The notes: generated by a model from the letters alone, not told the origin. Counted from the first letter of the stretch, positions 3,268-42,909 are shown. The stretch is DNA of 64,000 bases from an uncultured Gammaproteobacteria bacterium (GCA_942491995.1 CALOCX010000002.1:35758-99757); one strand, 5' to 3'. Numbers and translations are program-made.

Positions 3268-3460
3268 ATTTGGGCATCCCCTGTTGTATTCGATAGCGGC
3301 TGAGATCTCCTTGAGCCTAATCACCAATACCGGGGACTAATCTGTTAGCAGTGTGCATGTCTGCCATGAGCGGAAAGCCTTAGTTAGCAGTGCCGTCCCC
3401 CTCTTGAACCTTCGGTTCAGGGGCAACAGTTGCAACGGTACGTACGGAGGATGCCCTCCT
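3268..3460 (+). ncRNA. ssrS: 6S RNA (SsrS)
   Basis: Lies between zapA and ygfA. The 3' region cttgaaccttcggttcaggggcaacag matches E. coli CUUGAACCAAGGGUUCAAGGGUUACAG. The closing stem is gggcatcc...ggatgccc, and the internal ctgagcc and aagccttag elements match 6S RNA. Confidence 0.75.
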
Positions 3461-4601: not shown

Positions 4602-5120
4602 CCATGTGCCAGCAAACGTGTTCCGGCAGACATCACGATTGCAATCGACCCTCAAGACTGTCGACTTACTTCACACTCTTGCTACAGGCCACTCTTACAA
4701 ACAAAACATAAGTTCATGTTTGTACTAATAAATGATTTGCGACTGCAATAGCAGGGGTTTGCGCTTTGCTAACGCCATACACGTTCAACATGTCAACTAT
4801 GCCGAACCGCAAGAGCGGTCAGGTAATCTCACATTGTTTGCACTGACGTTGCGACGAAACATTTCATGACGTGCATCGATTTTGTTTTAACGTTACTCAC
4901 ATCGAATGCATTACACATTACCTTCATCATTTGAAACATCATCAGTCGCCTCTCACACAATTGCGTGCAAGTTGTGTCGCACGTTTTTATTTAATTAAAA
5001 GTACGTGTAGCCGCTAACACAGTCGTTCAACCACGTAAACAATTCCACTAAAAAATACTGGTAATTTGTTACTGGTTGTTTATACTCACGTTGGGCTAAC
5101 ACTATGTGGAGGTTGTAAGT

Positions 5121-5507
5121 ATGGCTGCAAAAAAGAAAGTGAAGAGAAAGGTTGCTACCAAGAAGAAGGTAGCTACAAGAAAAGTTGCTGCTAAGAAGAG
5201 AGTAGTAAAGCGTAAGGTAGCTGCCAAGAAGAAGGCAGTGAAACGCAAAGTAGCTACAAAGAAGGTTGCTGCCAAGAAGAAGGCAGTGAAACGCAAAGTA
5301 GCTACAAAGAAGAAAGCAGTAAAACGCAAGGTAGCCACTAAGAAGGTTGCTGCCAAGAAGAAGGCAGTGAAGCGTAAAGTAGCTACAAAGAAGAAAGCAG
5401 TAAAGCGTAAGGTAGCCACAAAGAAGGTTGCTGCCAAGAAGAAGGCAGTGAAGCGTAAAGTAGCTACAAAGAAGAAAGCAGTAAAGCGTAAAGTAGCGCG
5501 ACGGTAG
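5121..5507 (+). CDS. histone H1-like, lysine-rich nucleoid protein (AlgP/Hc1-like [12 protein letters not shown] repeats)
   Basis: GGAGG lies 9 nt upstream of the ATG at 5121. The protein is almost entirely K/A/V/R/T repeats, and the DNA is built of 81-bp tandem units. Confidence 0.7.
5180..5500 (+). repeat. about 4 tandem copies of an 81-bp (27-codon) unit inside the H1-like gene
   Basis: gttgctgccaagaagaaggcagtgaa[a/g]cg[c/t]aaagtagctacaaagaagaaagcagtaaa[a/g]cg[c/t]aaggtagcc recurs at 5224, 5305 and 5386 with only synonymous changes. Confidence 0.8.
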
Positions 5508-7142: not shown

Positions 7143-7256
7143 GTCGGGTACAGTACCAGTTCATTAATTCCGTGACGAGAGGCAAGTAGCCGCTCTCTGG
7201 TCGTGGAGTGCGGCTAGCTGCTATCATCGGCACATATCATAATCAGGGAGCAGCGC

Positions 7257-7913
7257 ATGACACAGGATGAAATGAAGAAAATGGTCGCCGAAGCGGCACT
7301 GGAATATGTTGAAGCCGGCACGATTATCGGCATCGGCACCGGCTCGACGGCAAACCACTTTATAGACAGCCTGGCCACCATCAAGCACAAGATCGATGGC
7401 ACGGTAGCCAGTTCCAATGCCAGCGCGGAACGCCTTGCGTCCCACGGCATCCCGGTACTCGATCTGAATTCTGTCAGTGAATTATCCGTCTATATTGATG
7501 GCGCCGATGAAGCCAACAAGTACCTGCACCTTATCAAGGGTGGTGGTGGTGCACTGACGCGGGAAAAAATCGTCGCCGCCTGCAGCCGCAAGTTCGTGTG
7601 CATTGCCGATGACAGCAAGCTGGTCGATGTGCTGGGCAATTTCCCGCTGCCCATTGAAGTCATCCCGATGGCACGCAGCATGGTTGCCAGGGAACTGGTC
7701 AAGCTTGGCGGCCAACCTGTCTACCGTGAAGGATTTACCACGGATAATGGCAACGTTATTCTCGATGTGCATAACCTTGAAATCATGGAGCCTGTCAAAC
7801 TGGAGCAGGAACTCAATGACATTCCCGGTATCGTGACCGTCGGCCTGTTTGCAAAACGGCCCGCGGATGTTCTGCTACTGGGGGGCAAAGATGGCGTACG
7901 GACACTGACGTAG
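7257..7913 (+). CDS. rpiA: ribose-5-phosphate isomerase A
   Basis: 218 aa with the [13 protein letters not shown]...[11 protein letters not shown] motifs. Confidence 0.9.
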
Positions 7914-7958
7914 CCACATCTGTCCACGGACGCGCCGCCCCTATGGCGCTTCTGGTTC

Positions 7959-8039
7959 GTGTAGGAGCGCCGTCCCCGGCGCGATTCGGAAACACCCGTC
8001 AACATGCAATCAATCGCGCCGGGGACGGCGCTCCTACAC
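7959..8039. repeat. 28-bp perfect inverted repeat (gtgtaggagcgccgtccccggcgcgatt) with a 25-nt spacer, between convergent rpiA and the WD40 gene
   Basis: The arms at 7959-7986 and 8012-8039 are exact reverse complements. GC-rich. Much longer than a typical terminator stem. Confidence 0.8.
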
Positions 8040-8052
8040 CGGTAGATACACT

Positions 8053-9066
8053 TCATTGAATCACTTCGCCGTCACTATCAAGCAACCAGAAACGCACACT
8101 GGCATCGTCACTGGTTGTCGCCAGGTAGCGACCATCTTGAGAAACGGCGATATCGCCGCCACACAGCTCATGCCGCTGGAAGCGGCGTCGCACCTCGCCG
8201 CTCTCTGCGTTCAGAAAATACACGGAACTGTCTGTCTGGCGACTGATGGTTGCCAGCTCGTTTCCGTCATTGATGTATTCTATGGACTTGATGATGCCGC
8301 GATGCTCGGTGGCGATCGTCGTTAACCTACCGTCGTCAAGATCCCATTGATAGAGACGGAACCAGCTACCGCCGGACAACGTTTTCCCATCGGGGGAGAA
8401 TGCCAGCGTCCAGGCATCGGCGGGTGGTGTAGCAAGCTGCCGGGGCATCGCGTCTTCAGACCACAGCACCACGGTGCCGTCTGTACTGCTGGACGCATAG
8501 CGTGCGACACCGGGATCAATGGCAACGGCCTTGACCGCACCCTGGTGCAACTGCTGCTCCTTCAACAAGGTAAAGTCCGCCGCCTTCCACAGGCGCACCG
8601 TGCCGTCATCGTGACCGGTCAGCAGTCGATCGGTTTTAATATCCGCAACCATGTGCGTAACCGCGGACGGTGTCCTGACCTGCTCCAGTAATTGTCCGTC
8701 AATTGCACGCCTGGTTAACAAACCGTCATAACCGGCTGTGACGATCTCGCGATCCGATTTCAGGAAGGCAATACCGTTAACAGAGTCACTGTGTGCAAGC
8801 CAGTGACGAACCTCTCGACCCTGCGGCAGTTGCCACAAACGCACCGTGCCTTCCCAGCCTCCCGATGCCAGCAGGTCACCGGACTCACTGAACGCGACCA
8901 CGCTGCCACCACTATGGGCCTTTTCCTTCACCACGGCCGGTGATTCTTCAGGATGGAAACTGGCGCATGCCGAAAGCAGCAGCACCTGAAAAACCAGAGC
9001 AAGTAGAAGTGACACAGGCGCGCCTTCCTTGCAAGCATTGAAAACAGAATTGCTATAATCTTTCAT
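8053..9066 (-). CDS. WD40-repeat beta-propeller lipoprotein
   Basis: Signal peptide with lipobox LLLSAC, and repeated GTVRLW / DGTVRLW / DGTVVLW WD motifs. Confidence 0.7.
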   Translation of the reverse strand: MKDYSNSVFNACKEGAPVSLLLALVFQVLLLSACASFHPEESPAVVKEKAHSGGSVVAFSESGDLLASGGWEGTVRLWQLPQGREVRHWLAHSDSVNGIAFLKSDREIVTAGYDGLLTRRAIDGQLLEQVRTPSAVTHMVADIKTDRLLTGHDDGTVRLWKAADFTLLKEQQLHQGAVKAVAIDPGVARYASSSTDGTVVLWSEDAMPRQLATPPADAWTLAFSPDGKTLSGGSWFRLYQWDLDDGRLTTIATEHRGIIKSIEYINDGNELATISRQTDSSVYFLNAESGEVRRRFQRHELCGGDIAVSQDGRYLATTSDDASVRFWLLDSDGEVIQ

Positions 9067-9115
9067 CGGTCATGCAGCCAGGTGAAGGAACAAACAGAAC
9101 CGGCGGCGGCCCCAT

Positions 9116-9145
9116 ATGAAAACGGGGCCCTCGGGCCCCGTTGAT
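9116..9145 (-). terminator. rho-independent terminator after porin gene 1
   Basis: On the minus strand: acggggccc-ga-gggccccgt followed by TTTTCAT. Confidence 0.6.
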
Positions 9146-9165
9146 TAAAAATATAATAATGGTTG

Positions 9166-10236
9166 CTAGAAGGTGTGCTTCATACCAAATGACAGCTTTC
9201 TGTCTTTGGAATCGTCCTTGTTGTCGCCAATAGCCGAACAGACATCGTTATCCTGCTGATCGCAGCGGAGCTCACTGTAGCCACCGTAGAGCATGGTACG
9301 CCGGCTCATATGGTGAGTCCCAACCAGCTGCCAGGCATTGTAGTAGGATGCCGTACTGCCACCGCTACCTTCTTCACCGCGTCCAAAGCCAAGATAGGCC
9401 ATGGAGTTACCCAGCGAGGCGGTTGCACCCAGCATCCAGGTGTTGGCGCCATCACCTGAACCATCGGTCTGGTTGTCGCCACGTGCACTGATCAGGCCAT
9501 CATCCCCCTCGTACTGCGCGAAAAAGGAGAACATACCCAGGTCGTACTTGCCACCCACCTTCCAGGCAGAATCATCGCCGCCCGCATCACTGGTAATGTA
9601 GTCTGCGAAGACAAGAAAGGAACCACCCTGCCACTGGCCGCCAATACCCCAGGGGCTGTCGGCGTTTGGATTGTCCTGGTCTTCAGTCTGCACGGTGTAG
9701 TGTGCGCCGGCACCGAGACCATTCCAGGTGGGCGTGTCGTAACGCAGTGTGTTGGTTGCTCGCCCCTGACCGTCCTCGCCTGCACCACGGTGCAAATCAG
9801 ACTGCAGGCCACGATCACGTTGCTGCAGTGCCGTGCGATAGATGGGATCCAGCATGGCGCCGTGTGACTTGTAAACGGTCGAGATGGTACCCGCACGCAG
9901 TTGGCCAAACACCCCGCCCAGTCCCAGCCACTGGTCACGATCGGTGATTGCATTTTTTCCAGAATCAGTAGCACCATTACCATTACGCTCGGTGGTGTCG
10001 TACTGGAAGTCAAGCTTGAACATCGCCTTGAGACCATTACCCAGGTCTTCGCTACCCTTGAAACCAAAAGAACAGGTCGTGCAATTCATATTGATGAAAT
10101 CGCCACCGCCCCCATCCGCATCCTCGTAATCCAGACTGGTATCGATGTGTCCAAATACCACAACGTCTGCGGAGGCCGCACTCATGCCACCCGCGAGGAC
10201 CGCAGCCATCAGGATCGGTAATTGTCTTTTCATCAT
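9166..10236 (-). CDS. outer-membrane porin (Gram-negative porin superfamily), paralog 1
   Basis: Start MMKRQLPILMAAVLAGG (a signal peptide) with GGGGAG as SD. Gly/Asp-rich beta-barrel composition. The C-terminus SFGMKHTF ends in Phe. About 60% identical to the next gene. Confidence 0.7.
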   Translation of the reverse strand: MMKRQLPILMAAVLAGGMSAASADVVVFGHIDTSLDYEDADGGGGDFINMNCTTCSFGFKGSEDLGNGLKAMFKLDFQYDTTERNGNGATDSGKNAITDRDQWLGLGGVFGQLRAGTISTVYKSHGAMLDPIYRTALQQRDRGLQSDLHRGAGEDGQGRATNTLRYDTPTWNGLGAGAHYTVQTEDQDNPNADSPWGIGGQWQGGSFLVFADYITSDAGGDDSAWKVGGKYDLGMFSFFAQYEGDDGLISARGDNQTDGSGDGANTWMLGATASLGNSMAYLGFGRGEEGSGGSTASYYNAWQLVGTHHMSRRTMLYGGYSELRCDQQDNDVCSAIGDNKDDSKDRKLSFGMKHTF

Positions 10237-10361
10237 GCTGTGCTCCCCGGAAACTTCAGAATGCGGCTTACTTGACAAGCCTTGTAATATAAAGATAAAT
10301 CTACTCAATCGTCAACAAAAATGCAACATCAATTTCCATTATGTTGTTATTGAGCAACAGA

Positions 10362-10392
10362 AAAGAAAACGGGGCCAACTGGCCCCGTTTCC
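10362..10392 (-). terminator. rho-independent terminator after porin gene 2
   Basis: On the minus strand: acggggcca-gtt-ggccccgt followed by TTTTCTTTTC. This is the same hairpin family as at 9116 and 33121. Confidence 0.6.
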
Positions 10393-10414
10393 CGGTTCTG
10401 CTCGATACTGCCGA

Positions 10415-11509
10415 TTAGAACGTGTGCTTCATACCCAGCGAGAAATCACTGACCTTGTCGAAGTCATCATAGTCCCGCTGAGCGTAACCGGCATAGACCT
10501 TGGTACGCTTGCTGAGGCTATGTACACCGACGATTTCCCAGTTTTTGGACTTGGTACCCACTGACTCTGTGCCCAACGTACCGTCATCGTAAATAAGCGT
10601 ACCACCGTCGGCATCGTCAGCCTGGCCGTATGCCGCATAGATCAGGTTGTTGCCAAAACCGGCGGTACCACCGACGAACCAGGTATCGGCACCATCACCA
10701 TTGCCAACAACATCCTGGCCGATAACTACACCATCTTTGACGGCAAAGCCCGTGCGCCGACTGATTGCACCACCGTCACCCTCGTACTGTCCGAAGAGGG
10801 CGAACTTGTCGAAGCCCCAACGGCCACCGACCTTCCAGGCGTCGTCGTCGCCACCGGCATCGCTGGTGATGTAGTCAGCAAAGACCAGGAAACCACCGGC
10901 CTGCCAATGGCCACCGATACCCCAGGGGCTGTCGGCGTTCGGATCAGCCTGGTCTTCTTTCTGTACGGTGTAGTGACCGGCTACCTGGAAACCTGCAAAG
11001 GTCGGGCTGTCATAACGGATGGTGTTGGTGGCACGACCCTGAGCCGCGGTATCGCCGGCACCGGTGTGCAGGTTGGACTGCAGACCCCAGTCACGACCCT
11101 GGAGCGCGGTACGGTAGATCGGGTCCAGCATGGCACCGTGAGACTTGTAAACAGTCGAGATGGTACCAATGCGCAGCTTACCGAAGTTGCTGTCAAGACC
11201 TAACCACTGGTCACGATCGGTGATTGCATTATTTCCAATAGGATTAGATCCATTACGCTCGGTGGTGTCGTACTGGAAGTCAATCTTGAAGATCGCCTTC
11301 AGGCCGTTACCCAGGTCTTCACTGCCCTTGAAGCCAAACGAACAAGTGGTACAGGTCAGGTTGTTGAGGGTTTTGTTGCTCTGGTTTTTGTCCTTGCCGC
11401 TGTTAAAACTGGTATCGATGTGACCCATTGCAGTCACGTCAGCAAATGCACTGGACATACCACCCACGAGGGCGGCGCCAATCATTACCGGTAAGATTTT
11501 CTTAATCAT
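10415..11509 (-). CDS. outer-membrane porin, paralog 2
   Basis: Start MIKKILPVMIGAALVGG with AAGGGGA as SD. The C-terminus is DFSLGMKHTF. It is a tandem paralog of 9166..10236. Confidence 0.7.
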   Translation of the reverse strand: MIKKILPVMIGAALVGGMSSAFADVTAMGHIDTSFNSGKDKNQSNKTLNNLTCTTCSFGFKGSEDLGNGLKAIFKIDFQYDTTERNGSNPIGNNAITDRDQWLGLDSNFGKLRIGTISTVYKSHGAMLDPIYRTALQGRDWGLQSNLHTGAGDTAAQGRATNTIRYDSPTFAGFQVAGHYTVQKEDQADPNADSPWGIGGHWQAGGFLVFADYITSDAGGDDDAWKVGGRWGFDKFALFGQYEGDGGAISRRTGFAVKDGVVIGQDVVGNGDGADTWFVGGTAGFGNNLIYAAYGQADDADGGTLIYDDGTLGTESVGTKSKNWEIVGVHSLSKRTKVYAGYAQRDYDDFDKVSDFSLGMKHTF

Positions 11510-12041
11510 GATATTCCCCTTACAGAGTTGAAGTAGAGTTAACAAAGTCACTTGTCATTGCACGCGAGTACTTTACAACAACAAACAGCAAGAACGCAAC
11601 ACTTATTTTCAAAAAAACCACAGACTGCCTTATTGTGTTGTTTTGTTGTCACACCGTGAGGCATGACTCTCTCACCAGCCACTGTTTTCCATAGCTAAAA
11701 TTGTGGAAAGTCACTGTATTTACAGGGAGTTAGAATATTCCTACGGCACAGCAGCCACTCAGCGCCTGAATTGGGTACGCCAGCAGACACTCCGAGAACT
11801 GATGGATGTACATCAATTTCCACGTGTTGCTTACCTACCACAGACCATTATATAGGTACAAAACGACTCTTCCAGAAACGCCTTGGGACAGAAACGAATG
11901 GATGAAGCTAACCATTCCGGCAACCTTTGCGAATGATGCGACCTTCCTGAAAAGCAGCTGCGGCACAACGAAGAAACACCGTTACTGGAACCCGATTAAC
12001 GAGTAGTACACACGGCGCTGAAACATTACAAACCGGCAAAC

Positions 12042-13940
12042 TCAAGGTTCAGTTGAATATCCAAAGCTTTTAGCCCAGGGCTCAAGCAGTGGAACTATTC
12101 CTTTAATCTGATCCTGGTAATTCTTCCATCGTCCGATTGCTTGTGTATATAGACTCTGTGTCACCTGATTATAACTTGGAGTGGTTATCGTCTCCCTCGA
12201 CAATGCTGTCTGCTGAAAATCCAGTAAATGATCATGCCAGGCCAAACCCAGAAAGTTCAGTAGCGGTTCCGCGGCACCTTGCAAGTCATGGACAATATCT
12301 TCATACCTCAAAACTCCAGCATCAAGATCCAGGGCATTGTTGTAATGAACCCAAAGACTCATAACGGCATCATACAAGCTGGCAGATTGCTGCAGGGTCA
12401 GGAAATTCGCCATGGCATCGTTTAATTGAAAGTTCTGCATGAAACAACTCAGCACACAGTCGTACGGATGCCGTAATGCCAGAATGAATTTGGAAGCCGG
12501 GAAAACCCGGTGGATCAAACCAGCGTCAATGATATTCAGGGGCAGTTTGTCGATGACGAGCTTATGCGAACCATCAGGTTCAACATGAGAATTAAGCTCC
12601 TCGAAATATACTTCCCTTAACCCGGCTATCTGTTTGTCATCCAGGTCCGTCAGAAGATCAACTGTCGCGAGACCTCCCATGTGAGTCCGCATAGACTCCA
12701 CCATGTGTTTTTCTTCCACCACCAATACTTCGGGGTGTGACCGTAAAATTGTATCGAGGAGCGTGGTACCCGAGCGGGGGAACCCTACAAGAAATGCCAG
12801 TGAATATTGCCTGGTTGACGACTGTTTTGTGGACCATCTTATCTTCCCGGCATTCGCCCAGGATTCCGAGGTTTTTGATACTCGATCAAAGTAACGCTGC
12901 GCACTGAATTGCTGGCCAGCAGAAAATTGCCTGGCCATATTATTGGTTATCTCGAACTGAGAAAATGCGCTGGAAAACTCGCCAAGCCTGTCATATGTCT
13001 TTGAGAGAAGTTCCGAGTAACGCTGCCTTGTACGCGGCAAGAGTCTTTCGGGAGCTACCAGTTCAAGGAAATCACGAGCAGCTTCAAACTGCTTTTCCCT
13101 ACTGGCAAGCAGCGCCTTGAGAAACAGAAGTTCTGGATGGTTTTTTGGAAGTACCTGCTGTGCGCGATGCAAGGCCTTTTTCAGCTCGGTAACCCTGTTG
13201 TGCTTTTCGTAGAAATCACAAAGGCTGGTATGCGCGATTCCAAGATCAGGCTTGAGCTCGATCGCCTTCTCATAGCTCTCCACCGCCTCCTGCAACTTTC
13301 CAAGATCACAGAGTGCATTGCCGCGGTTGCTGTAAGCCTCGGCATAATCAGGCTTGAGCTCGATCGCCTTCTCATAGCTTTCCAGCGCACCCTCCAGTTG
13401 CCATAGCTCTCTAAGCACATTGCCACGGTTGCTGTAAGCCTCGGCATAATCAGGCTTGAGCTCGATCGCCTTCTCATGGCTCTCCACCGCCTCCTGCAGC
13501 CGCCCAAGGTCACAAAGTGCATTGCCACGGTTGCTGTAAGCCTCGGCATAACCAGGCTTGAACTGGATTGCCTTCTCACAGCTCTTCACCGCATCTTCCA
13601 GCCTCCCTAACTTGTGAAGTGCATTGCCACGGTTGCTGTAAGCATCCGCATAATCAGGTTTGAGCTGGATTGCCTTCTCATAGCTTTCCAGCGCCTGCTG
13701 CAGCTGCCCAAGGTCACAGAGTGCATTGCCACGGTTGCTGTAAGCATCCGCATAATCAGGCTTGAGCTCGATCGCCTTGTTGAATGCCTTGCACTGCCTC
13801 ATGAAACTTGCCTTGCTCCTGGCATGCCACTCCCAGGACATTGAGAATGAATACTGCTTGTGGATAGACCTGGAGTAATTCTCTACAAGCCTGCTCTGTC
13901 TTCGCCACCTGCCCGGAGTGATATAGATTGACCAGGGCAT
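12042..13940 (-). CDS. TPR-repeat protein with a C-terminal sulfotransferase domain (this is the downstream reading frame of a frameshifted gene)
   Basis: At least six 34-aa TPR units (AIELKPDYAEAYSNRGNAL...) are followed by GFPRSGTTLL, the PAPS 5'-PSB motif of sulfotransferases. Confidence 0.7.
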   Translation of the reverse strand: MPWSIYITPGRWRRQSRLVENYSRSIHKQYSFSMSWEWHARSKASFMRQCKAFNKAIELKPDYADAYSNRGNALCDLGQLQQALESYEKAIQLKPDYADAYSNRGNALHKLGRLEDAVKSCEKAIQFKPGYAEAYSNRGNALCDLGRLQEAVESHEKAIELKPDYAEAYSNRGNVLRELWQLEGALESYEKAIELKPDYAEAYSNRGNALCDLGKLQEAVESYEKAIELKPDLGIAHTSLCDFYEKHNRVTELKKALHRAQQVLPKNHPELLFLKALLASREKQFEAARDFLELVAPERLLPRTRQRYSELLSKTYDRLGEFSSAFSQFEITNNMARQFSAGQQFSAQRYFDRVSKTSESWANAGKIRWSTKQSSTRQYSLAFLVGFPRSGTTLLDTILRSHPEVLVVEEKHMVESMRTHMGGLATVDLLTDLDDKQIAGLREVYFEELNSHVEPDGSHKLVIDKLPLNIIDAGLIHRVFPASKFILALRHPYDCVLSCFMQNFQLNDAMANFLTLQQSASLYDAVMSLWVHYNNALDLDAGVLRYEDIVHDLQGAAEPLLNFLGLAWHDHLLDFQQTALSRETITTPSYNQVTQSLYTQAIGRWKNYQDQIKGIVPLLEPWAKSFGYSTEP

Positions 13941-14172
13941 TAATTTGGTCCCGCGAAGGATTTGCAGTCTGAACCTGCGTGGATTGATCGAGCGGTAAAT
14001 CTTTTCGCAGTTTTCTCAGGCCTTTTGTTGCAATCGGGTGATTGGGCTGGTGCTGCAATACCATGTTGTAGAGTTGCAATGCCAGCCTAGCATTACCACG
14101 CTTGATGGCCTTTTTTGCCCGTGATATGGCTTGTTCGATCGTTAATTCTCGAGGGTGAGTCATATGTTGCAC
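13756..14172 (-). CDS. N-terminal TPR segment of the same TPR-sulfotransferase, in the upstream reading frame
   Basis: 138 aa of TPR-like helices. It ends ...GKFHEAVQ exactly where the other frame continues AFNKAIELKPDYA. A single extra G near 13795 separates the two frames. Confidence 0.55.
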   Translation of the reverse strand: MQHMTHPRELTIEQAISRAKKAIKRGNARLALQLYNMVLQHQPNHPIATKGLRKLRKDLPLDQSTQVQTANPSRDQINALVNLYHSGQVAKTEQACRELLQVYPQAVFILNVLGVACQEQGKFHEAVQGIQQGDRAQA

Positions 14173-14323
14173 TCGCCATACTTGATATCTAGTTGATGAT
14201 TTTCAACACCCTTAAGATGAATCACGCTATGCACTCGTTCTACCGGTCGTCGCCATTGCACAACGACGTTCTAACTCGCTGCGCTCACACGTCGAACCCG
14301 AGGTTCTCATCCGAGTCCGCCTA

Positions 14324-14352
14324 AACAAAACCCGCCATGCGGCGGGTTTGGT
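14324..14352 (-). terminator. rho-independent terminator after the rplM-rpsI-tRNA-Gln unit
   Basis: On the minus strand: cccgcc-gcat-ggcggg followed by TTTTGTTT. Confidence 0.7.
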
Positions 14353-14355
14353 TTA

Positions 14356-14429
14356 TGGCTGGCGGACTAGGATTCGAACCTAGATTAGTGGAGTCAGAGT
14401 CCACTGTCCTGCCGTTAGACGATCCGCCA
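14356..14429 (-). tRNA. tRNA-Gln (anticodon CUG)
   Basis: Cloverleaf with a U1:A72 pair (the Gln identity element), T-loop GGTTCGAATCC, anticodon loop CU-CUG-AC, discriminator G and an encoded CCA. Begins 8 nt after the rpsI stop. Confidence 0.85.
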
Positions 14430-14437
14430 AAAGCGGC

Positions 14438-14827
14438 TTAACGTTTGGAGAACTGCGGAGCGCGACGCGCCTTGTGCAGACCGACCTTCTTGCGTTCCAC
14501 CTTACGGGCGTCACGTGTCACAAAGCCTGCTCGCCTCAGGACCGGGCGCAGTTCGTTATCGTATTCAATGAGTGCGCGGGTGATACCATGACGAATAGCA
14601 CCCGCCTGGCCACTCATGCCGCCACCCTTGACGGTAACCGTAATGTCAAAATCACCCAGCATATTGGATGTGTCCAGCGGCTGGCGCACAATCATGCGGG
14701 CGGTTTCACGACCGAAGTAGGTATCAAGAGGACGCTTGTTAACAATGATGTCGCCTTTACCCTTGCGCAGAAAAACCCGTGCAGTTGAAGTTTTACGGCG
14801 TCCGGTACTGTAGTAGGTGTCACTCAT
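14438..14827 (-). CDS. rpsI: 30S ribosomal protein S9
   Basis: 129 aa. The ...[18 protein letters not shown]-terminus is diagnostic. Confidence 0.95.
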
Positions 14828-14900
14828 GCTTTATTCCTGTTGCTGACTTGATTTCGCGTCAGTCAATTCGTTTAACTGGGTTCTGATAATCGGGTGCTGA

Positions 14901-15328
14901 TTAAAAATTCAGTGGCTTTGGCTGCTGGGCAGCATGCTGATGGTCTGGCCCGGCGTAAACCTTCAGCTTGCGAAACATCGCGCGACCCAGCGGGTTCTTC
15001 GGCAGCATACCCTTGACAGCCAGTTCGATAACCCTGCCCGGTGCCTTTTCCTGCATCTTTTCAAAGTTAGCGGACTTCAGGCTACCGATGTAGCCGGTAT
15101 GGTGATAGTACATCTTGTCCGTTGCCTTGCGGCCGGTAACATGCACCTTGTCGGCATTCACCACAACGATGTAATCACCGGTATCGACATGGGGTGTATA
15201 TATAGGCTTGTGTTTTCCGCGCAGGCGGCGTGCGATCTCAGTGGCCAGTCGGCCCAATGTTTTACCTGCAGCATCAACGACATACCAGTCGCGATTCACT
15301 TCGTGTGCTTTTGCGGAAAATGTTTTCA
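14901..15328 (-). CDS. rplM: 50S ribosomal protein L13
   Basis: [20 protein letters not shown] matches the L13 N-terminus. The track start at 15359 is a TTG upstream and is rejected. Confidence 0.9.
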
Positions 15329-15483
15329 TCGGTATTAGCTCGGGATCATGCGAAATCAAAGAGCGGGGATGTTACAAAAGTCGCCGGTAACTTACAAGGT
15401 TTCCATCTGAAACAGCATCTTTAAATTCAGCACATCGCTCCCGGCATCCATGCCTCCCGCGACATGCCTACATCCCTGTAGGC

Positions 15484-15520
15484 AAAAAAAAGCGCGGACC
15501 AATGTGGCCGCGCTTAATAA
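15484..15520 (-). terminator. rho-independent terminator downstream of the ferredoxin gene
   Basis: On the minus strand: agcgcggcca-cattg-gtccgcgct followed by TTTTTTTT. Confidence 0.6.
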
Positions 15521-15740
15521 ACCTCCTTGGGGGGAGGTGGAGGAGCGCTGACTGACCAAATAGGGGGGCAGGCCAATCAGCGTGTTAGTATCTTCTAATA
15601 TAATGTCCTTCTTGTCAAGCCCCAAAGAGGTAATGGATTTCAGATGGCCGTAAAATCTTCTAAGTGATTGATAATATTGGCCAATCGTTAAATATTTGGT
15701 TTTATTAATAATATCAATGGGTTATACGTACACCCCTGTG

Positions 15741-16049
15741 TCAGATTCTCAACCGTTCCACAACCCGCCCGTTCTTCAGATGCTCCTCGATGATCTCGTC
15801 GATATCCTCGCGGTCAACATAGCTGTACCAGACCGATTCCGGGTACACGACTATTACAGGTCCTTCCGCACAGCGATCGAGACATCCCGCGGTATTGATC
15901 CTGACGCCACCCTCGCCGCCAAGCCCCAGTTCCTTGCAGCGTTGCTTGGCATAGTCACGGAGGCCCTGCGCATCGAATCGTTGACAGCAGTCACTGCCAT
16001 CCGCACGCAGATTGGTGCAGAAAAAAACATGATAAGCATAATAAGACAT
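15741..16049 (-). CDS. thioredoxin-like [2Fe-2S] ferredoxin
   Basis: About 102 aa with a four-Cys pattern (C-x-x-x-x-C ... C-x3-C) and VVVYPESVWY, typical of NuoE/Fdx4-type 2Fe-2S ferredoxins. Confidence 0.7.
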   Translation of the reverse strand: MSYYAYHVFFCTNLRADGSDCCQRFDAQGLRDYAKQRCKELGLGGEGGVRINTAGCLDRCAEGPVIVVYPESVWYSYVDREDIDEIIEEHLKNGRVVERLRI

Positions 16050-16102
16050 ATTCAATTAATTCCATCGGGGACGTGTTTACAGGATCATGCTATCTTAATG
16101 CG

Positions 16103-16747
16103 ATGCAAGAACGTAAACAGACTTTTATTGACCGGCTGATTACGCATACCGACCAGGCGTTGCGAACCGTCTTTGGCGAGCCCGTTGGCTCGGGGCGGGA
16201 AAACCCGGCTGAACCAGTCATGGAGCATGAACTCTCGACGGTCGACAAGACCAGGAGCATCCGCCTGATGCGGGTAAACCATGCCGGTGAAGTATGCGCC
16301 CAGGCGCTCTACCAGGGTCAGGCACTGACCGCTCGTCAACATGAAACACGCCAGCAAATGAAACAGGCCGCAATTGAAGAGAATGACCACCTCGCCTGGT
16401 GCCGACAACGCATCAGGGAGCTGGGCGGTCATACCAGCCTGCTTAACCCGATCTGGTATACCGGTTCCCTCGCGATGGGTGCAGCCTCGGGTCTAATGGG
16501 AGACAAATGGAGCCTGGGGTTTCTTGCAGAGACCGAAAACCAGGTTGTCAAACATATTGAGGGTCACCTGCAGCAATTGCCCGCGGACGACGGCAAGTCT
16601 CACGCGATACTGGAACAAATGAAAACCGACGAGGCAAAGCATAAAGCCAGTGCACTGAATGCAGGCGGCACCGCCCTTCCCGACCCGGTTAAAAAAATGA
16701 TGACGCTCGTATCCAGGGTAATGACCTCGACAGCCTCGCGGATTTAA
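16103..16747 (+). CDS. coq7: demethoxyubiquinone hydroxylase Coq7 (di-iron)
   Basis: RVNHAGEVCAQALYQGQ and a second E-x-x-H helix. About 214 aa from MQERKQ. Confidence 0.8.
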   Translation: MQERKQTFIDRLITHTDQALRTVFGEPVGSGRENPAEPVMEHELSTVDKTRSIRLMRVNHAGEVCAQALYQGQALTARQHETRQQMKQAAIEENDHLAWCRQRIRELGGHTSLLNPIWYTGSLAMGAASGLMGDKWSLGFLAETENQVVKHIEGHLQQLPADDGKSHAILEQMKTDEAKHKASALNAGGTALPDPVKKMMTLVSRVMTSTASRI

Positions 16748-16750
16748 GCA

Positions 16751-17554
16751 CTAGCTCGAACTGCGCGACATGTTGCGCCCGTAAAACATCTCCAGCATCT
16801 CCTTCCTGACCTGTGTACGTATCTTGTGCTGCTCGGCATCGGACAATGCTTCCATGCCGACACCAAACAGATAATCACCCAGATCGATGTCCTTCAGCAT
16901 CATCTTGGTATGGAATATGTTTTCCTGGTACACATTGACGTCAATCATCTGGTATTGCTCGCGTGTGTCACGAGACAGAAAGTCCTGTATCGAGTCTATC
17001 TTGTGATCGATAAAATGTTTCCTGCCTCGCACATCGCGCGTAAAGCCGCGTACACGATAGTCAAGAATGACAATATCCGATTCAAAAGTGTGTATCAGAT
17101 AATTCAGTGCCTTCAGGGGCGATACCCGGCCACAGGTTGAGACATCAATATCGACACGGAAGGTGCTGATCCCGTGGTCAGGATGACTTTCAGGATAGGT
17201 ATGCACGGTGATATGGCTCTTGTCCAGATGCGACACCACGGCCTCCGGCAAGGGCCCCGGTGTTGCCGTGTTTGACAGCAGTTCCGAGGCCACCGGTTCC
17301 TCCGAAATCAACATGGTGACGCTGGCGCCCTGCGGATCATAGTCCTGGCGTGCCGTATTCAGAATGTTGGCACCGATAATATTGGCGACGTCATTGAGTA
17401 TATCGGTGAGACGGTCGGCATTATATACCTCGTCTATATACTCGATATATTCTCTGCGGTGAGTCGCCTTTTGCGCATAAGCGATATCGTAAATATTAAA
17501 ACTGAGCGTCTTGGTAAGGTTATTGAAGCCGTGTAATTTAAGTTTTCGCATCAT
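16751..17554 (-). CDS. speD: S-adenosylmethionine decarboxylase proenzyme
   Basis: [22 protein letters not shown]...HTYPESHP is nearly collinear with E. coli SpeD. Confidence 0.9.
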
Positions 17555-17590
17555 CGACCTTCCTGGCAGCAACCACCCGACGGTACCACA

Positions 17591-17986
17591 TCAAACAGTA
17601 ATGGGCGGATGGTAGATAAGCTGTACCACCGTACCTTCGGGGTCTGTGCAGTAGAAACTTCGCGCGCCATCGCGGTGGGTCAGTGGCACAGTCTTGATCA
17701 CAACGTCACTGGCCTTCAGGAACGCATACCAGTCATCGACCTGCGCTTCACTGGCGACAAAGAAGCCCAGATGATCCAGCCGCTGCGCTGATCCATCAGG
17801 ACCGGTATCCGCAACCCGATGCAGCGCCAGGTTGTCATTGCCCGAGGTTAAATAAACATTGTCCGCATCCGGACGCCACTCAACCTCCATGCCAAGCAAT
17901 TCAACGTAGAACCGCTCACAGGCCTCCAGGTCACTGACATTCAGGGCGACGTGCCGCATACCCAGCGTTTTTTGCGGCCGCTGCAT
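17591..17986 (-). CDS. VOC/glyoxalase-family protein
   Basis: 131 aa. GMRHVALNVSDLEACERFY is the glyoxalase-fold N-terminus. Confidence 0.7.
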   Translation of the reverse strand: MQRPQKTLGMRHVALNVSDLEACERFYVELLGMEVEWRPDADNVYLTSGNDNLALHRVADTGPDGSAQRLDHLGFFVASEAQVDDWYAFLKASDVVIKTVPLTHRDGARSFYCTDPEGTVVQLIYHPPITV

Positions 17987-18417
17987 TACCCGGCCCCGGC
18001 GACTGAGTCAACAATCTCGTAATCATGCGTAATTGTTGCCGTCTTGCCAAGCATGATCGATGCAGAACAGTATTTCTCTGCAGAAAGCTCCACGGCACGG
18101 GCAACCTGCCTGTCGGACAAGTCGTGACCGGTTACAACAAAATGCACGTGGATTTGAGTGAACACCTTCGGATCTGTATCAGCACGTGTCGCATCAATAT
18201 CAACCACACAGTCGACAATCTGCTGCCGTGCCTTCCTGAGTATCATCACCACATCAAATGCCGTACAACCCCCCATGCCGAGCAACAGCATCTCCATGGG
18301 GCGAATACCAAGATCACGCCCGCCACTCTCGGGAGGACCATCCATCACCACCGAGTGACCGCTGCCGGATTCCCCGACAAACGTCATTGCCTCAACCCAT
18401 TTAACACGCGCTTTCAT
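17986..18417 (-). CDS. OsmC/Ohr family peroxiredoxin-like protein
   Basis: OsmC fold with two conserved Cys (GGCTAF ... KYCSAS). Start is MKARVKW. Confidence 0.7.
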   Translation of the reverse strand: MKARVKWVEAMTFVGESGSGHSVVMDGPPESGGRDLGIRPMEMLLLGMGGCTAFDVVMILRKARQQIVDCVVDIDATRADTDPKVFTQIHVHFVVTGHDLSDRQVARAVELSAEKYCSASIMLGKTATITHDYEIVDSVAGAG

Positions 18418-18524
18418 TAGTACACCCAACCCTCGAAAAACGTGAATCCTATCACAGTTCAAAGCACCTGGTTGCGGTCTGCCAGCAGCCCTAAAGCTAT
18501 TGCCTGACTGCCCGATAAAGGGTC

Positions 18525-19190
18525 ATGCAAGCACTTCCACTGACATTCGAAGCAAATAACACGCCACTACCGGGTACCGTCAACCCCTGTATTACGCGAT
18601 TCCTTGAACACTGCCACCGCCGCAAATATCCGAACAAGAGCGTCATTATTTACGCAGGCGATCAGCCGGACGTTCTCTACTACATCATCAGTGGCTCGGT
18701 CAGTGTGCTGATCGAGGATGAGGACGGCCACGAGATCGTACTCGCCTACATCAATGCCGGCGGTTTTTTCGGTGAAATGGGACTGTTCGGGGAGAGTCCC
18801 AATCGCAGCGCATGGATACGTACCCGGATTGAATGCGAGGTCGCCGAAATCAGCTATTCGCGTTTCCGTTCACTCGCCAAGGAAGATCCGGATATCCTGC
18901 TGGAACTGACCGCCCAACTGGCCACACGTCTGCGCAAGACCAGTCGCAAGGTCAGTAACCTTGCCTTTCTCGACGTCACCGGGCGCATCGCGCACACCCT
19001 GCTGGAATTATGCAAGGAACCGGATGCGATGACCCACCCGGACGGCATGCAGATCAGGATTACCCGCCAGGAAATTGGGCGTATTGTGGGTTGCTCGCGC
19101 GAAATGGCGGGGCGGGTGCTGAAATCACTCGGTGAACAGGGACATATCTCGGTTAAGGGTAAAACGATTGTTGTATTCGGGACGCGTTAA
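18525..19190 (+). CDS. vfr: cAMP receptor protein CRP/Vfr
   Basis: Near-collinear with CRP/Vfr: the cNMP pocket FFGEMGLF...RSAWIRTR, then the [25 protein letters not shown] and the end [11 protein letters not shown]. Confidence 0.9.
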
Positions 19191-19211
19191 ACCTGCTGGC
19201 CCTGCAGCATC

Positions 19212-20009
19212 CTAGGCAAACAGTTCCGCAAGCCGCTCGCCCGGCTCAGACGCCTTCATAAACGCCTCTCCTACCAGGAACGCATTCACGCCACGCGCGC
19301 GCATCAGGGCCACGTCCTCGACCGTGTGTATACCACTCTCGGTTACCACGATACGGTCTTCAGGAATGTGCTCCAGTAAATCCAGCGTCACATCCAGGCT
19401 GGTTTCAAAAGAACGCAGATCACGGTTATTTATCCCCAGCAAGGGTGCAGGAATCGCCAGCGCACGTTCCAGTTCACCGCCATCATGCACCTCAACCAGG
19501 GCATCCATGCCTAGATGACGGGTCAACTGTAACAACTCCAGTAACATGGCATCATTCAATGCCGCGACGATCAGCAGAACAGCATCAGCACCGAGCACCC
19601 GCGCCTCATACACCTGGTATGGATCAACAATAAAATCCTTGCGCAACACCGGCAGACCACAGGCTGCGCGCGCCTGTTGCAGGTAAGCGTCCGCACCCTT
19701 GAAAAAATCAATATCCGTCAGGACAGACAGACAGGCCGCTCCGCCTTTCTCATAACTCGCGGCTATCTGGCCAGGATCAAAATCCTCACGCAGCAGGCCA
19801 CGGCTTGGCGATGCCTTCTTTATCTCGGCAATGACAGCGGCCTGTCCTGTCTGCAGCTTTTCTTGCAAGCAGTTAATAAAACCGCGTGGCGTCCCCGCCT
19901 CCGCCACACCCCGAGCCAGTTCCTCCATGCCCGTGTTGCGAATACGCTCGTCGATTTCCTCGACCTTGCGTGCAAGAATACGTTTCAGTATATCCGGTGT
20001 ATCACTCAT
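19212..20009 (-). CDS. trpC: indole-3-glycerol phosphate synthase
   Basis: 265 aa. [13 protein letters not shown] is the TrpC N-terminus. Lies in trpEGDC order. Confidence 0.9.
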
Positions 20010-20014
20010 AGCTG

Positions 20015-21031
20015 TCAGACCGTATTGGATGCCTTGATCAATGAAGCAAAGGTCTGTTTTGCCTTGCCGCTGGCGATCACCTCACTGGCCAGATCGACAC
20101 CCTGCTGCAGCGTTGCCATCAGGTCGGCAGCATAGATTGCCGCGCCGGCATTCAGGCAGACGATGTCACGAGCAGGACCGGGCCGGTTATCGAAAACAGC
20201 CTCGATCATTGCCAGGCTCTGTGCAGCATCTGCAACGGCAAGGCTATCAAGACCGGCACGCTGCATACCGAACTCCTCTGGTGTAATGGTATACGTTGAT
20301 ATCTCTCCGTTCCTGAGTTCCGCAACCCGTGTTGCTGCAGCAATACTGATTTCATCCAGACCGTCTTCGGCGTGCACAACAAGTACATGCTGACTGCCGA
20401 GCTGTTTGAGCACCTGCGCCAGCGGTTCAACCCAGTCCGAACTGAACACTCCGAGCACCTGGTTCGGTGCTCCGGCAGGGTTGGTCAATGGACCCAGCAG
20501 GTTGAACAAAGTCCGCACCCGCATTTCCTTGCGCGGACCAATAGCATGCTTCATGGCGCTGTGATGCTGCGGTGCAAACAGGAAGCCGACACCTACCTGG
20601 TCGATACAGGCCGCCACCTGTGCCGGATCAAGATCCAGTTTCACACCGGCCGCCTCCAGCACATCGGCACTGCCGGAACTGCTGGAAACCGAGCGATTGC
20701 CATGCTTTGCGACACGCCCGCCGGCGGCTGCAGTGACAATGGCACTCGCAGTGGAGATATTGAAAGTACTGGCACCGTCACCACCGGTGCCACAGGTATC
20801 CACCAGGTGTGGACCGGAGACGTCAACGGCAGTAGCCAGTTCACGCATGACCCTGGCCGCCGCCGCGATCTCGTCAACCGTTTCACCCTTCATGCGCAAA
20901 CCAACCAGGAAGCCTCCGATCTGTGCGGCTGTTGCCTGCCCGGTCATGATCGAGCGCATCACCATCTCCATCTCGTCGGCACTCAGATCGCGGCGATCGA
21001 TGACGGCCGCAATGGCTGTTGTAATATCCAT
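20015..21031 (-). CDS. trpD: anthranilate phosphoribosyltransferase
   Basis: 338 aa with the GTGGDG motif. Confidence 0.9.
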
Positions 21032-27771: not shown

Positions 27772-30700
27772 TCAGTGCTCGCGGACAACACGAAATCCGA
27801 GGTTGTCGAGACGTGTATCCTGGTCATATTGGCTGCGCTTGGCATTGCGCAGTGAGTCTAGCGGACTGGTGTAGGCGCCGCCCCGTACGACCCGCATGGC
27901 GCATTCGGGAAACTGCCATGAGCTGCCATCTACCGGTGCACCATGGTAGCTGCCATGATAACAGTCAGACGTCCATTCCTGGACATTGCCGGTTACATCA
28001 TGCAGGCCGAAATCATTGGCTTCAAAGCTGCCCACAGGTGCCGTGCGCAGACTGTCCCACTCACTGCCACAGTCAAAGCAATTTGCATGAAGATTGTTAC
28101 TGTCATCATGCCACCAGAAACTGGCGACACTGCCGGCACGGGTGAAATACTCCCACTCGGCTTCTGATGGCAAACGGTATATCTGCCCTGTCTGCTCTGT
28201 AAGCCAGCGGGCATAGGCACGCGCATCATCCCAGGAAACATTGATCACCGGGCGCCCGCCACGGCCCCAGGACTCGTCATAAGGCAGCCGACGACCTGTC
28301 GCTCGCGCAAACCTGTCATATTCTTCGAATGTAACTTCATATTTACCGACAGAAAAGGCAGCCACATTCACCCGATGCCGCGGCCCCTCGTCAAAATTCA
28401 GAGAATTTCCAACACTACCCATTTCATAGCTGCCAGCCGGCAGCTCAACCATCACCGGACCCTGGCCACCAAGCTGGAGCTTTTCACGGTAGGAACGGCC
28501 GGCGACTACAGGCGCCAGGGACATCACGTCAACAGCCTCATCAGCCTGTGGTTGTAACTGTTCCTTATCAGGTACTGACGTCTGTACCGTGACATGTTCC
28601 ACAGCCGGCGGAGATTCCTGAACAGTTGCCGCAACTTGCTCGATTTCCATTTCCACAGACGCGGCGGCCGGTTGTACTTCAGTTGCAGGTGATTCACTGA
28701 TAACAATCGCTTCGGGTTCAGCCACCGGCTGCGTAACAACGGGTAATTGTCGCCCTGCGTCGTTGTCAAACAGCGGGACATCCACACCGAAAAACAGCCA
28801 GCCAGCCAGCGCACACGCAGTCACTGTACACAACCCGATTGCAGCACCAAGCCAGCGCCACTGCTTGTTTTCACGCCTGTCATCTACCGCGGAACGCTTC
28901 TGGCTGTCCTGCTCCCGGTCCACCGGGGTTACTGGCAATACTGCCTGCCGTGCTTTCGGTCCAGGCCCCGGGTGCCCGGATACTGCTTCAAGCTTGTCAA
29001 GGGACGGTACATGTAGCGGCTCGCTCGACACCTCCCCGGAATCCAGTTGCTGCCGGAGCGCGTCACGTTCCTGCTGCAGCTTGTCGCGAGCGGCTTCCGC
29101 CTCGGCTCTCAAGCGCAACGCAATCTCAACGTTCTTCTTGCTTTCATTCAGCTCATTGCGTAATTTTGCGGGGTCTTCGACCTGTTCGCCAACCCCCATA
29201 AGACCACGTGCGACCTCTACCTCACCACGCAAGGCATTCATCCTGTCGCGCAGTGACTGCTGCTCCTCAAGCGCTGCATCCCGTTCTTCTGTGTACTGCT
29301 TGAGCTGTGATTCGAGCTGTGAAATAGTTGCTACCGCCTGCCGGTTTTGTTCTTCCATCAAGTCGACATCGACCTTCCTGCGGTCTTTTTCCTGACGGGC
29401 GAGCACGGCAATTTCTTCGTGTGCCTTTTTCAGTTCCTGCTGAAGCCTGTCAATCTGGTCTTCAGTTTCTACATGCTCTGCAAGCAGTTCCCGGACGCGT
29501 TCCTGCTCCTCCTGTCTTGCTGCATTGCGGGCCTGCTCAATAGCACCATTATGATTGGACAGATTTGTTTCATGCTCTGTCGCGATTGAAGCAAGCTGCT
29601 CCTTCAACTCGCGCTGGCGTGCGGCCATCTCAGACCGCTCTTCCGCACGTGCCTGCCGTTCAGCATGCAGTTGTTCCCGCAAATTATCGACATCTTCACG
29701 CGCACCTTCGCGGTCCTTCTGATGGTCCGTCGTCTGTTGCTCGACTTTTTTTCGCAGCCTGTCTATTTGCCCCTGCAGCTCTTTTTCATTGTCGTTTTTG
29801 CGTGTCAGGTCCTCATGCGCTTTCTGCACAGACAACTTGTTCTCTTCCTCGAGCGCCTTCGCCCGTTCTTCCTGCTGTTCGAGCTGCAGACGCAGGTCGC
29901 TCAGCTGCTGTTGTAATATGTCACGTTCCTGCTGAAATGCTTCAGACTCACTCCCGTGCAGTGCCAGCTGTTCCTGCAGAGAACTCAGATGCGCATCCTT
30001 TTCCTCATTTGACTGTTCAACAGCACTTGTCTTTTCCCTGGCCTCCTGCAACTGCGACTGTAACTGCTGGAGTTGCTCATTCGAAGCAGATGCCAGTGAC
30101 TCCGCCTCCTGTTTCAGTGACTCTATCCCGCTTTGCAGTTGCTGTTTCTGCGCCTCACTATCAGCGTGTTGTTGCTGTAGCTGTTCACGCTCCGCCATCA
30201 CGGCCTGCAACTCATCATCCTGTCTGGACCGATCCTGCTTGAGTTCAAGCTGCTTGATCTCAAGTTGCTCAATCCTTTCATTTGATTTGTCGAGCTGTGC
30301 TTTAAGTTCTGCCTCAAGTGCAGACTTGTCTTCGCTGGATTGCAGCAACGCCAGTGACAACTCCTCGCGGAGCGTGGTCACAACCTGCTGCTCGCCATCC
30401 AGCACCTGCTGCAACGCAGCCCGCTCGGCCTCCCATTCCGACTGCTGCCGCTGGGCGGCCTCTTCCGAGGCCTGCCTGTCTGCCAGCAGGTTTTCCAGCT
30501 GCTCCCTTTGCTCTTCCTGTTGCACACCGGCATCACGCAATTCGGTGCGTAATATCTCGTTATCCCGCTGCAGCGCCTGCAGCTGGCCCGAGAGTGCAGA
30601 GTTGTCTGCCTCCAGTCCGGACACCTGCCCCGATTTCTCATTGAGTTGCGCCGAAACCTCGGCAAACTCATGCTTGAGATGGTCAAGTTCCTCTCTTAAA

Positions 30701-32100: not shown

Positions 32101-32745
32101 ATTCACCTGGTTCAGAATTCAGTGATCGTCGTTATTTACCCCGTTCACGGGGCCCCGCCACGGCACTACACCGCACCTTGTTTATCGGCAAAAACAGCTT
32201 GAAATTAAGGAGATGAACTGTGCGGCAAGAGACGCGTAACAGGATGCAGGACACGACAGGATCAACGCCTCGCAGCACATTGGCGGTGATCAGTCTGCAA
32301 CCGCTAGCAGGCTATCGGCCACCAAGGTGAATTGCTGCACAGCGTTATACATCGCGCAAAATTAACTATATTTATGTTTAATATCAGTTGGTTGGACTAT
32401 ATCTCGGATATCAATGTCTAGTAAAAAGCAGGACCCGGTTAACATGTGGCAACGCTGTAGAAGTATCTGGCCACCTGCCACCAGGACTGCCGGCAACATC
32501 ACTGGCGGTCATCGTGACACGCTATAACCATTCACCCTGCATACTCTGACAACAATGTGGTTGCCGGGTCGTCAACAGACACATGACAGAACACACCGAA
32601 TAAACATCCATGCCGCCGTCTGCCGTATGGCGCTGAAGTACTGCTATAGAAGGTGTTTTATTAAATTAAAACCCTTTAACATTTCTATTATTGTGCTATC
32701 TTACGCGTGCTATTAATTTCACCACCTGAAGAGGAGCGACAACGA

Positions 32746-37628: not shown

Positions 37629-37750
37629 CCTGCCTCCATGCTCCAGGATTCAAGCCTCCTGGCAGACTGTTATTTTTATCAACGCCACTGAGCGGCGACT
37701 TAGGTATATTTATAGACAAACAACAGCCTTACTGCAATCGGTCGAAGGTA

Positions 37751-42362: not shown

Positions 42363-42446
42363 AATTTAATAAACTTCCTTCATACATACAATTCGGTTTG
42401 AGCCAGCAGGTCGGCACTCAGAGTACAGATTCTTTTGACTTCGTGT

Positions 42447-42898: not shown

Positions 42899-42909
42899 GC
42901 GGATAAAAT

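Follow-up and report, generated by a model that had tools for sequence, protein, structure and literature searches.

Does a pair of overlapping open reading frames on the minus strand of DNA from an uncultured gammaproteobacterium represent two genes, or one gene interrupted by a single base, and, if so, did the interruption arise in the cell or in the assembly? The locus lies in a stretch of 64,000 nucleotides, hereafter the window, and was first singled out by a prediction made from the sequence alone, in which a gene combining a TPR array with a sulfotransferase domain was held to be split by one extra G. The main features are as follows.

12042..14163, minus strand: interrupted gene for a TPR protein with a predicted TPST-like sulfotransferase domain, 706 aa after removal of one G
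14163 or 14172..13756, minus strand: ORF A, the N-terminal module and helix A of TPR unit 1
13940 or 13802..12042, minus strand: ORF B, TPR units 2-7 and the sulfotransferase domain
13787..13788, minus strand: one-base insertion, GG against a single G in all relatives, located by alignment to these relatives

ORF A measures 138 aa when read from a GTG at 14172 and 135 aa from an ATG at 14163, and it stops at 13756. The longest form of ORF B (632 aa) begins at an ATG at 13940; the public gene call takes the ATG at 13802 and gives 586 aa. The two frames overlap over 13940..13756. ORF A runs to ...GKFHEAVQ, continues for ten out-of-frame residues (GIQQGDRAQA) and then stops, and the start of ORF B likewise consists of out-of-frame sequence. 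The original prediction described a 138-aa ORF (13756..14172) and a 632-aa ORF resuming in the +1 frame, and this is what we find: the 138-aa ORF ends in ...GKFHEAVQGIQQGDRAQA, and ORF B (12042..13940) carries ...KAFNKAIELKPDYA and the longer stretch ...KAFNKAIELKPDYADAY..., both in the +1 frame relative to ORF A. Deletion of one G produces a continuous ORF of 706 aa from ATG 14163, or 709 aa from GTG 14172.

ORF A and ORF B are two pieces of a single gene. Searched with the repaired protein, the databases return P0001 (709 aa, 95% identity) and nine more single-ORF homologs of 672-723 aa at 70-81% identity. The proposal of one gene joining a TPR array to a PAPS-type sulfotransferase is borne out by three intact relatives, whose nucleotide identities to the window are 99.6%, 96% and about 84%, and by 20 aligned full-length orthologs. 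The closest of these relatives, L005 (the 85-kb contig_39259 of ENA ERZ25039514), was reached through the S9 protein of the window; it is 99.6% identical to window positions 20826..8437 and holds an intact 706-aa gene. Compared base by base over 12.4 kb, the window and L005 differ by 47 mismatches and two indels, the extra G at 13788 and an extra C in L005; within the gene, the extra G is the sole indel between the two. L001, a JGI metagenome contig (identical to L002) that supplies the DNA of P0001, shows 96% nucleotide identity to the window and an intact gene of 709 aa. In L016, which encodes an 81% ortholog at about 84% nucleotide identity, the gene is intact at 706 aa and its 2181-nt alignment contains a single gap, and L003, a Gammaproteobacteria MAG with a 78% ortholog, has an intact gene of 675 aa. 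The window gene aligns collinearly with its intact counterparts in L005, L001, L003 and L016.

These alignments also bear on the possibility that two separate genes evolved here, one for a small TPR protein and one for a sulfotransferase. Gene callers do give two genes here, and many homologs are N-terminal fragments on contigs of less than 1 kb. Yet a search for split orthologs by alignment found none: the junction ...EAVQAFN[KR]AIELKPDY... is unbroken in all full-length orthologs (672-748 aa), and continuous in 20 out of 20 of those aligned. The ten-residue tail of ORF A and the start of ORF B, moreover, are both out of frame, and as far as the aligned sequences tell, a conserved two-gene arrangement is refuted.

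The insertion falls between a CAA (Gln) and a GCA (Ala) codon, after ...EAVQ and before AFNKAIEL..., inside TPR unit 1. An extra G had been proposed near 13795, and it does explain the break; it can be placed more exactly as a change from G to GG at 13788/13787, where the closest relatives read GTGCAA-GCATTC. The strings gtgcaaGGcattcaac / GTGCAAGGCATTCAAC begin at 13794, with the GG at 13788/13787. A programmed +1 ribosomal frameshift, or another form of recoding, could in principle make the full-length protein from such a sequence, as a +1 shift anywhere in the overlap of frames (13940..13756) would fuse the ORFs and an upstream AGGAG is present at about 13820-13816. We give this explanation next to no chance, since the gene is in a single frame in the 99.6%, 96% and more distant relatives and the shift is therefore not conserved. 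At GUG CAA G GCA (13794-13785), furthermore, a +1 shift leaves the P-site tRNA no way to re-pair, and the site contains neither a stop nor a rare codon, with the nearest AGGAG about 28 nt upstream. The prfB frameshift, by comparison, has an upstream Shine-Dalgarno spacing of roughly 3 nt. A programmed +1 gene of the prfB type was rejected on two counts: the orthologs do not conserve the shift, and a slippery site with a close Shine-Dalgarno sequence is absent.

The insertion had also been linked to the repetitive nature of the gene, which is organized as follows.

13245..13778, minus strand: tandem TPR-coding array of 102-bp (34-aa) units, from Tandem Repeats Finder
13857-13755, minus strand: TPR unit 1, divergent, which holds the frameshift
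13754-13653, minus strand: TPR unit 2
13652-13551, minus strand: TPR unit 3
13550-13449, minus strand: TPR unit 4
13448-13347, minus strand: TPR unit 5
13346-13245, minus strand: TPR unit 6
13244-13143, minus strand: TPR unit 7, degenerate

Tandem Repeats Finder, the check suggested with the original prediction, reports a period of 102 with 5.2 copies and 82% matches over 13245..13778, and a separate repeat search finds five in-register copies at 102-nt spacing. The units are TPRs by the Pfam TPR_1 model, which matches six stretches (E 3.8e-63; 207 bits, cutoff 27.8). The positions first proposed for the units, between about 13240 and 13750, were roughly right, and the true boundaries lie at 13245, 13347, 13449, 13551, 13653 and 13755. 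Near-identity of the units at the DNA level, on the other hand, was overstated: units 2-6 are 77.5-92.2% identical in pairs, in line with the 82% matches of Tandem Repeats Finder, and unit 1 shares 50-58% DNA identity with the others. The longest exact repeats are of 52 nt (13324-13375 = 13426-13477) and 41 nt (13618-13658 = 13720-13760).

Recent unit duplication or gene conversion, which had been read from this similarity, does not agree with the divergence of the units. Synonymous divergence between units (dS 0.24-0.64) exceeds that separating the gene from its 96% relative L001 (dS 0.116), which makes the duplications older than the split of these lineages. Positional orthology is kept as well: identity is 91-99% to the positional orthologs in L001 and mostly 74-88% to paralogs, and for units 1-3, 5 and 6 the best match is the positional counterpart in L001, unit 4 being tied with unit 6 (91.2% each). 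Even units 4 and 6, the two paralogs most alike (92% identical), have a dS of 0.31. Neither the dS values nor the positional comparison between the window and L001 gave any sign of ongoing homogenisation. A change of a whole unit becomes visible only at the distance of the 78% ortholog in L003, which has one unit fewer (675 vs 709 aa, exactly 34 aa); gain or loss of whole units does occur, on a longer time scale.

A repeat-mediated misassembly of TPR units would be a further way to break the gene, and the 52- and 41-nt exact repeats could indeed mislead short-read assemblers. The inserted G, however, falls within unit 1, the most divergent of all, 9 nt beyond the array delimited by Tandem Repeats Finder and 27 nt away from the closest long exact repeat. 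Its flanks match L005 and L001 unit for unit, with six units in each and no discrepancy on the scale of 102 nt. A simple duplication of G to GG with flanks collinear with the relatives argues against misassembly at the level of units, and the location of the G outside the array means that the repeats, contrary to what had been suggested, do not explain the frameshift. Whether by an evolved pair of genes or by misassembled repeats, an account of the locus along these lines is highly improbable.

Apart from the insertion, the coding sequence is intact and, as shown by its substitution pattern, constrained. Compared with L001, dN/dS is 0.20, indicating purifying selection, and a comparison with the relatives for a second lesion in the gene found none. 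Against L005 there are no substitutions in the 125 codons upstream of the break, and three synonymous and three non-synonymous ones downstream. An established pseudogene was considered and rejected: there is one lesion only, the dN/dS is 0.20, and the lesion is found in one contig rather than being common to related genomes. Elsewhere in the window, a search for other frameshifts brought up overlapping same-strand ORF pairs at 649/1979, 23280/23965 and 26497/27257, all of which prove to be distinct genes, their Pfam domains complete; gene lengths in the window match those of the sister contig.

How widely is the broken allele distributed? The 135-aa product (P0206) and the 586-aa product (P0208) have exact matches on one NCBI contig only, of 118,646 bp. 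Several other proteins of the window map uniquely to this same contig, which is evidently the source of the window itself. An exact look-up of the 632-aa and 138-aa forms in the public collection gave no match, the forms present there being those of 586 aa and 135 aa. The rest of the 90% cluster consists of intact proteins (706, 706, 709, 723 and 748 aa) and of shorter fragments on contigs of 1-2 kb. A search with ORF A for fragments bearing the out-of-frame tail in independent assemblies found none above 76% identity; with no other N-terminal fragment beyond this level, no independent assembly covers the split allele. Among JGI metagenome contigs, a pattern allowing either G or GG returned only the known intact contig (L001 = L002), and a scan of contigs from species-representative genomes returned only the 78% ortholog L003 and one irrelevant TPR match. 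Near-identical contigs come from the runs SRR21856588, SRR21856587 and ERR9670067 and from JGI 3300045962 and 3300037397. The insertion is private to this contig, and the normal state in the population is an intact ORF of 706 aa.

Two origins remain to be weighed. Most likely, the extra G stems from an error in the consensus of the assembly behind this contig, a reading to which the available sequences would lend about an even chance. In its favour are the private nature of the insertion, the lack of decay in the gene and the private breaks seen in sister assemblies. In L005, the extra C splits a glyoxalase gene (35 + 109 aa) whose copy in the window is intact (131 aa) and apparently intact in L003 too, where a 131-aa ORF occupies the syntenic position; in L016 it is a WD40 gene that is frameshifted. 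Private one-base breaks that hit different conserved genes in related MAG contigs form the pattern expected of consensus errors. Against an error stands the otherwise clean record of the window: over about 48 kb aligned with contig_39259 (L005, L007, L011), with some 200 substitutions and six one-base indels, this G is its only coding indel.

The same comparison feeds the competing explanation, to which we assign a probability somewhat short of even, that the insertion is a genuine, very recent frameshift private to one strain, giving rise to a newborn pseudogene or to two products of 135 aa and 586 aa, the latter from ATG 13802. Two of the six one-base indels are coding, the G at 13788 and the C in the L005 glyoxalase gene, and four are intergenic (37154, 37702, 42823 and 42905). 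Indels are thereby enriched in non-coding DNA, with four of six in about 12% of the sequence (binomial with uniform placement, P = 0.003). Such a bias resembles real polymorphism filtered by selection and thus points to genuine indel variation between strains. Aligned over 16.9 kb with short contigs of independent origin (L006, L008-L010, L013-L015), the window showed no indels; position 13788 lies outside the span of all of them. The assembly is otherwise clean, and a start site is at hand: ATG 13802, which the public gene call selects, overlaps the stop of ORF A by 47 nt and is preceded at 13 nt by the Shine-Dalgarno-like AGGAG at about 13820-13816. Were the insertion real, its sequence context would allow translation to begin anew at this ATG. 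Against a real mutation count the presence of the allele on one contig only, the want of a second lesion or of relaxed constraint, the similar private breaks in other genes of sister assemblies, and the content of the part truncated off, an N-terminal module upstream of the break that holds the family-invariant residues G87 and P104. Natural homologs of 597 aa were considered as support for a functional 586-aa product and rejected; they keep the N-terminal module and have fewer TPRs, so that a 586-aa product would miss a conserved part that shorter homologs retain.

The case is an ordinary private one-base frameshift in a known gene family. Its importance hardly extends beyond annotation hygiene: the two ORFs should become one frameshifted TPR-sulfotransferase gene, with the site flagged. 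Near-identical MAG contigs of one population each carry private single-base breaks, and isolated frameshifts in MAGs should therefore not be taken for biology without reads. Frameshift aside, the family combining TPRs with a TPST-like sulfotransferase domain is widespread in sulfur-oxidising and symbiotic Gammaproteobacteria and could merit study.

What the intact protein would do is suggested by its C-terminal part, which contains the following elements.

12117..12794, minus strand: sulfotransferase domain, residues 457-682 of the repaired protein, by Pfam PF13469 and PF00685
12785..12756, minus strand: 5'-phosphosulfate-binding motif GFPRSGTTLL, from motif reading and alignment to TPST2
12473..12447, minus strand: 3'-phosphate-binding-type motif RHPYDCVLS, from motif reading and alignment to TPST2

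PF13469 (Sulfotransfer_3) matches residues 457-644 with 104.4 bits (cutoff 27), and PF00685 scores 38.3 against 22. The sulfotransferase motifs are intact, lie downstream of the break and are invariant in the 20 orthologs. In the alignment to TPST2, GFPRSGTTLL corresponds to GVPRSGTTLM, LRHPYDCVLS to VRDGRASVHS, and the acidic pair in VVEEK to that in CGEET, which includes E99, the catalytic base of TPST2. We infer a PAPS-dependent, TPST-like sulfotransferase, for which tyrosine may be the acceptor. An AlphaFold model of the 95% ortholog shows paired helices in the TPR part (pLDDT about 85-97) and a poor sulfotransferase domain (pLDDT 35-80), so that a fold search informs on the TPR part only; the best Foldseek matches of the modelled TPR region are OGT (1w3b, E 4.4e-17) and SPINDLY (7y4i, E 1.5e-16). 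The protein would accordingly be pictured as a cytoplasmic enzyme in which an N-terminal TPR superhelix of about six canonical and some degenerate units is fused to a C-terminal PAPS-dependent TPST-like domain. By analogy with OGT and SPINDLY, the superhelix may bind a protein or peptide substrate and present it to the sulfotransferase domain. A literature search on TPR-fused bacterial sulfotransferases found nothing specific, and no demonstrated substrate for any member.

The neighbourhood of the gene is conserved. In L003 the gene order is the same as in the window, rplM-rpsI-tRNA-Gln-TPR-sulfotransferase-porin-porin, and the two porin genes that follow the gene in the window (10415..11551 and 9166..10308) have counterparts at this place in L003, L005 and L016. 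One further feature precedes the gene.

14356..14429: tRNA-Gln, ahead of the gene

A strong hairpin with a U-tract after the tRNA-Gln was spotted by eye and then folded (dG -20 kcal/mol). A scan of consensus promoters and terminators brought up nothing relevant. Preceded as it is by a tRNA-Gln and a hairpin with U-tract, the TPR-sulfotransferase gene probably has its own promoter.

Among known systems, the nearest is the 'tetratricopeptide repeat-containing sulfotransferase family protein' of NCBI, found in Gammaproteobacteria, with the same architecture and 44-95% identity over the full length. Members such as P0049 (Solemya velum gill symbiont), P0002 (MAG Gammaproteobacteria bacterium ALSabin.191) and P0013 (symbiont of Taylorina sp.) share with the present gene an N-terminal module, a TPR array, linker helices and a Sulfotransfer_3 domain. 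The number of TPRs in the family varies in steps of 34 aa, and the present gene differs in having its ORF broken by one additional base. Among proteins of solved structure, the C-terminal domain is closest to human TPST2 and TPST1 (PDB 3ap1, 9wwe, 5wri; E 1.6e-10 to 1.7e-06), which have in common with it the GxPRSGTTL motif (5'-PSB), an EE pair after the first strand, a DK/NK-xP motif and the R...S 3'-phosphate-binding motif. TPSTs, however, are Golgi-lumenal type II membrane proteins devoid of TPRs, whereas the present protein has a TPR array and no evident N-terminal signal or membrane segment.

RaxST of Xanthomonas oryzae is TPST-related and is encoded in the raxX-raxSTAB cluster; it is not known to carry a TPR domain. 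Its activity as a bacterial tyrosine sulfotransferase has been characterised biochemically (PMC4892823, PMC4216712), and it reportedly sulfates the secreted peptide RaxX and the outer-membrane protein Omp1X (PMC4892823). Like the protein predicted here, it is bacterial, cytoplasmic and PAPS-dependent, and the reported Omp1X substrate may be set beside the two porin genes adjoining the present gene. This parallel allows a bolder reading, which we consider quite unlikely, in which the G is real, the family consists of bacterial protein (tyrosine) sulfotransferases with porins as substrates, and gain and loss of TPR units retargets these substrates. If it were true, the porin adjacency in the window, L003, L005 and L016 would hint at porin substrates, comparable to the reported pair of RaxST and Omp1X, and the window would show a naturally occurring allele, either loss-of-function or truncated at its N-terminus, that segregates in a wild population.

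OGT and SPINDLY, finally, resemble the present protein in placing an N-terminal TPR array ahead of a C-terminal transferase, and in many sequence matches the same TPR array is joined to OGT-type or methyltransferase domains. The likeness to OGT and SPINDLY is one of architecture only, these being GT41 glycosyltransferases and the present protein a predicted sulfotransferase.

The TPR-sulfotransferase homologs retrieved with the N-terminal piece of the split gene (P0214-P0294) include dozens of genes that are known only as N-terminal fragments of 80-210 aa, carried by contigs that are mostly shorter than 1 kb, which suggests that breaks inside these TPR arrays are common in short-read assemblies. 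In a lysine-rich ORF of the window (5106..5507, plus strand), copies of an 81-bp tandem repeat, about 90% identical to one another, occupy approximately 5166..5497. There the alignment to contig_17623 of another assembly (L012) contains a compensating pair of 81-nt gaps, consistent with an ambiguity in repeat register.

Gene breaks are also present in related assemblies, in the counterparts of two genes of the window:

17591..17986, minus strand: glyoxalase-family gene, 131 aa, unbroken in the window
8053..9066: WD40 protein gene

In the sister assembly (L005; ERZ25039514 contig_39259), an extra C at 2941, corresponding to about 17887 in the window, splits the glyoxalase-family gene into 35 + 109 aa, and a 131-aa ORF occupies the syntenic position in the gammaproteobacterial MAG locus L003. 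This break is the mirror image of that in the TPR-sulfotransferase gene of the window. The WD40-repeat ortholog in L016 (ERZ25039508 contig_18757) is frameshifted at about 1601 into 225 + 110 aa.

The TPR-sulfotransferase gene is directly followed downstream by two tandem paralogs of the Gram-negative porin family (Porin_4), whose DNA sequences share about 75% identity:

9166..10308, minus strand: porin gene
10415..11551, minus strand: porin gene

The same adjacency is seen in L003, L005 and L016, with the TPR-sulfotransferase gene inverted relative to the porin genes in the last of these. Within the porin gene at 10415..11551, window and L005 differ by a 7-nt block substitution (10570-10576). 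All non-coding indels relative to the sister assembly fall in the intergenic stretches 36941..37751 and 42362..42910, among which lies a small hypervariable patch (37212-37230). Relative to L012, identity drops sharply over 7193..8475, at the end of contig_17623, with numerous small indels and mismatches; either the strains have diverged here, or the other assembly may have resolved the end of its contig poorly.

Further elements of the window are:

3275..3454, plus strand: 6S RNA (SsrS) gene, full length (Rfam RF00013, 83 bits)
14322..14350, minus strand: GC-rich hairpin with U-tract, immediately 3' of tRNA-Gln (dG -20 kcal/mol, z -3.2)
27772..32106, minus strand: gene for a 1444-aa protein

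The hairpin was not picked up by a consensus terminator scan. The 1444-aa protein has an ortholog on the sister contig (L007) that combines cNMP-binding, rhodanese and FGE-sulfatase (formylglycine-generating-enzyme-like) domains, an uncommon fusion.
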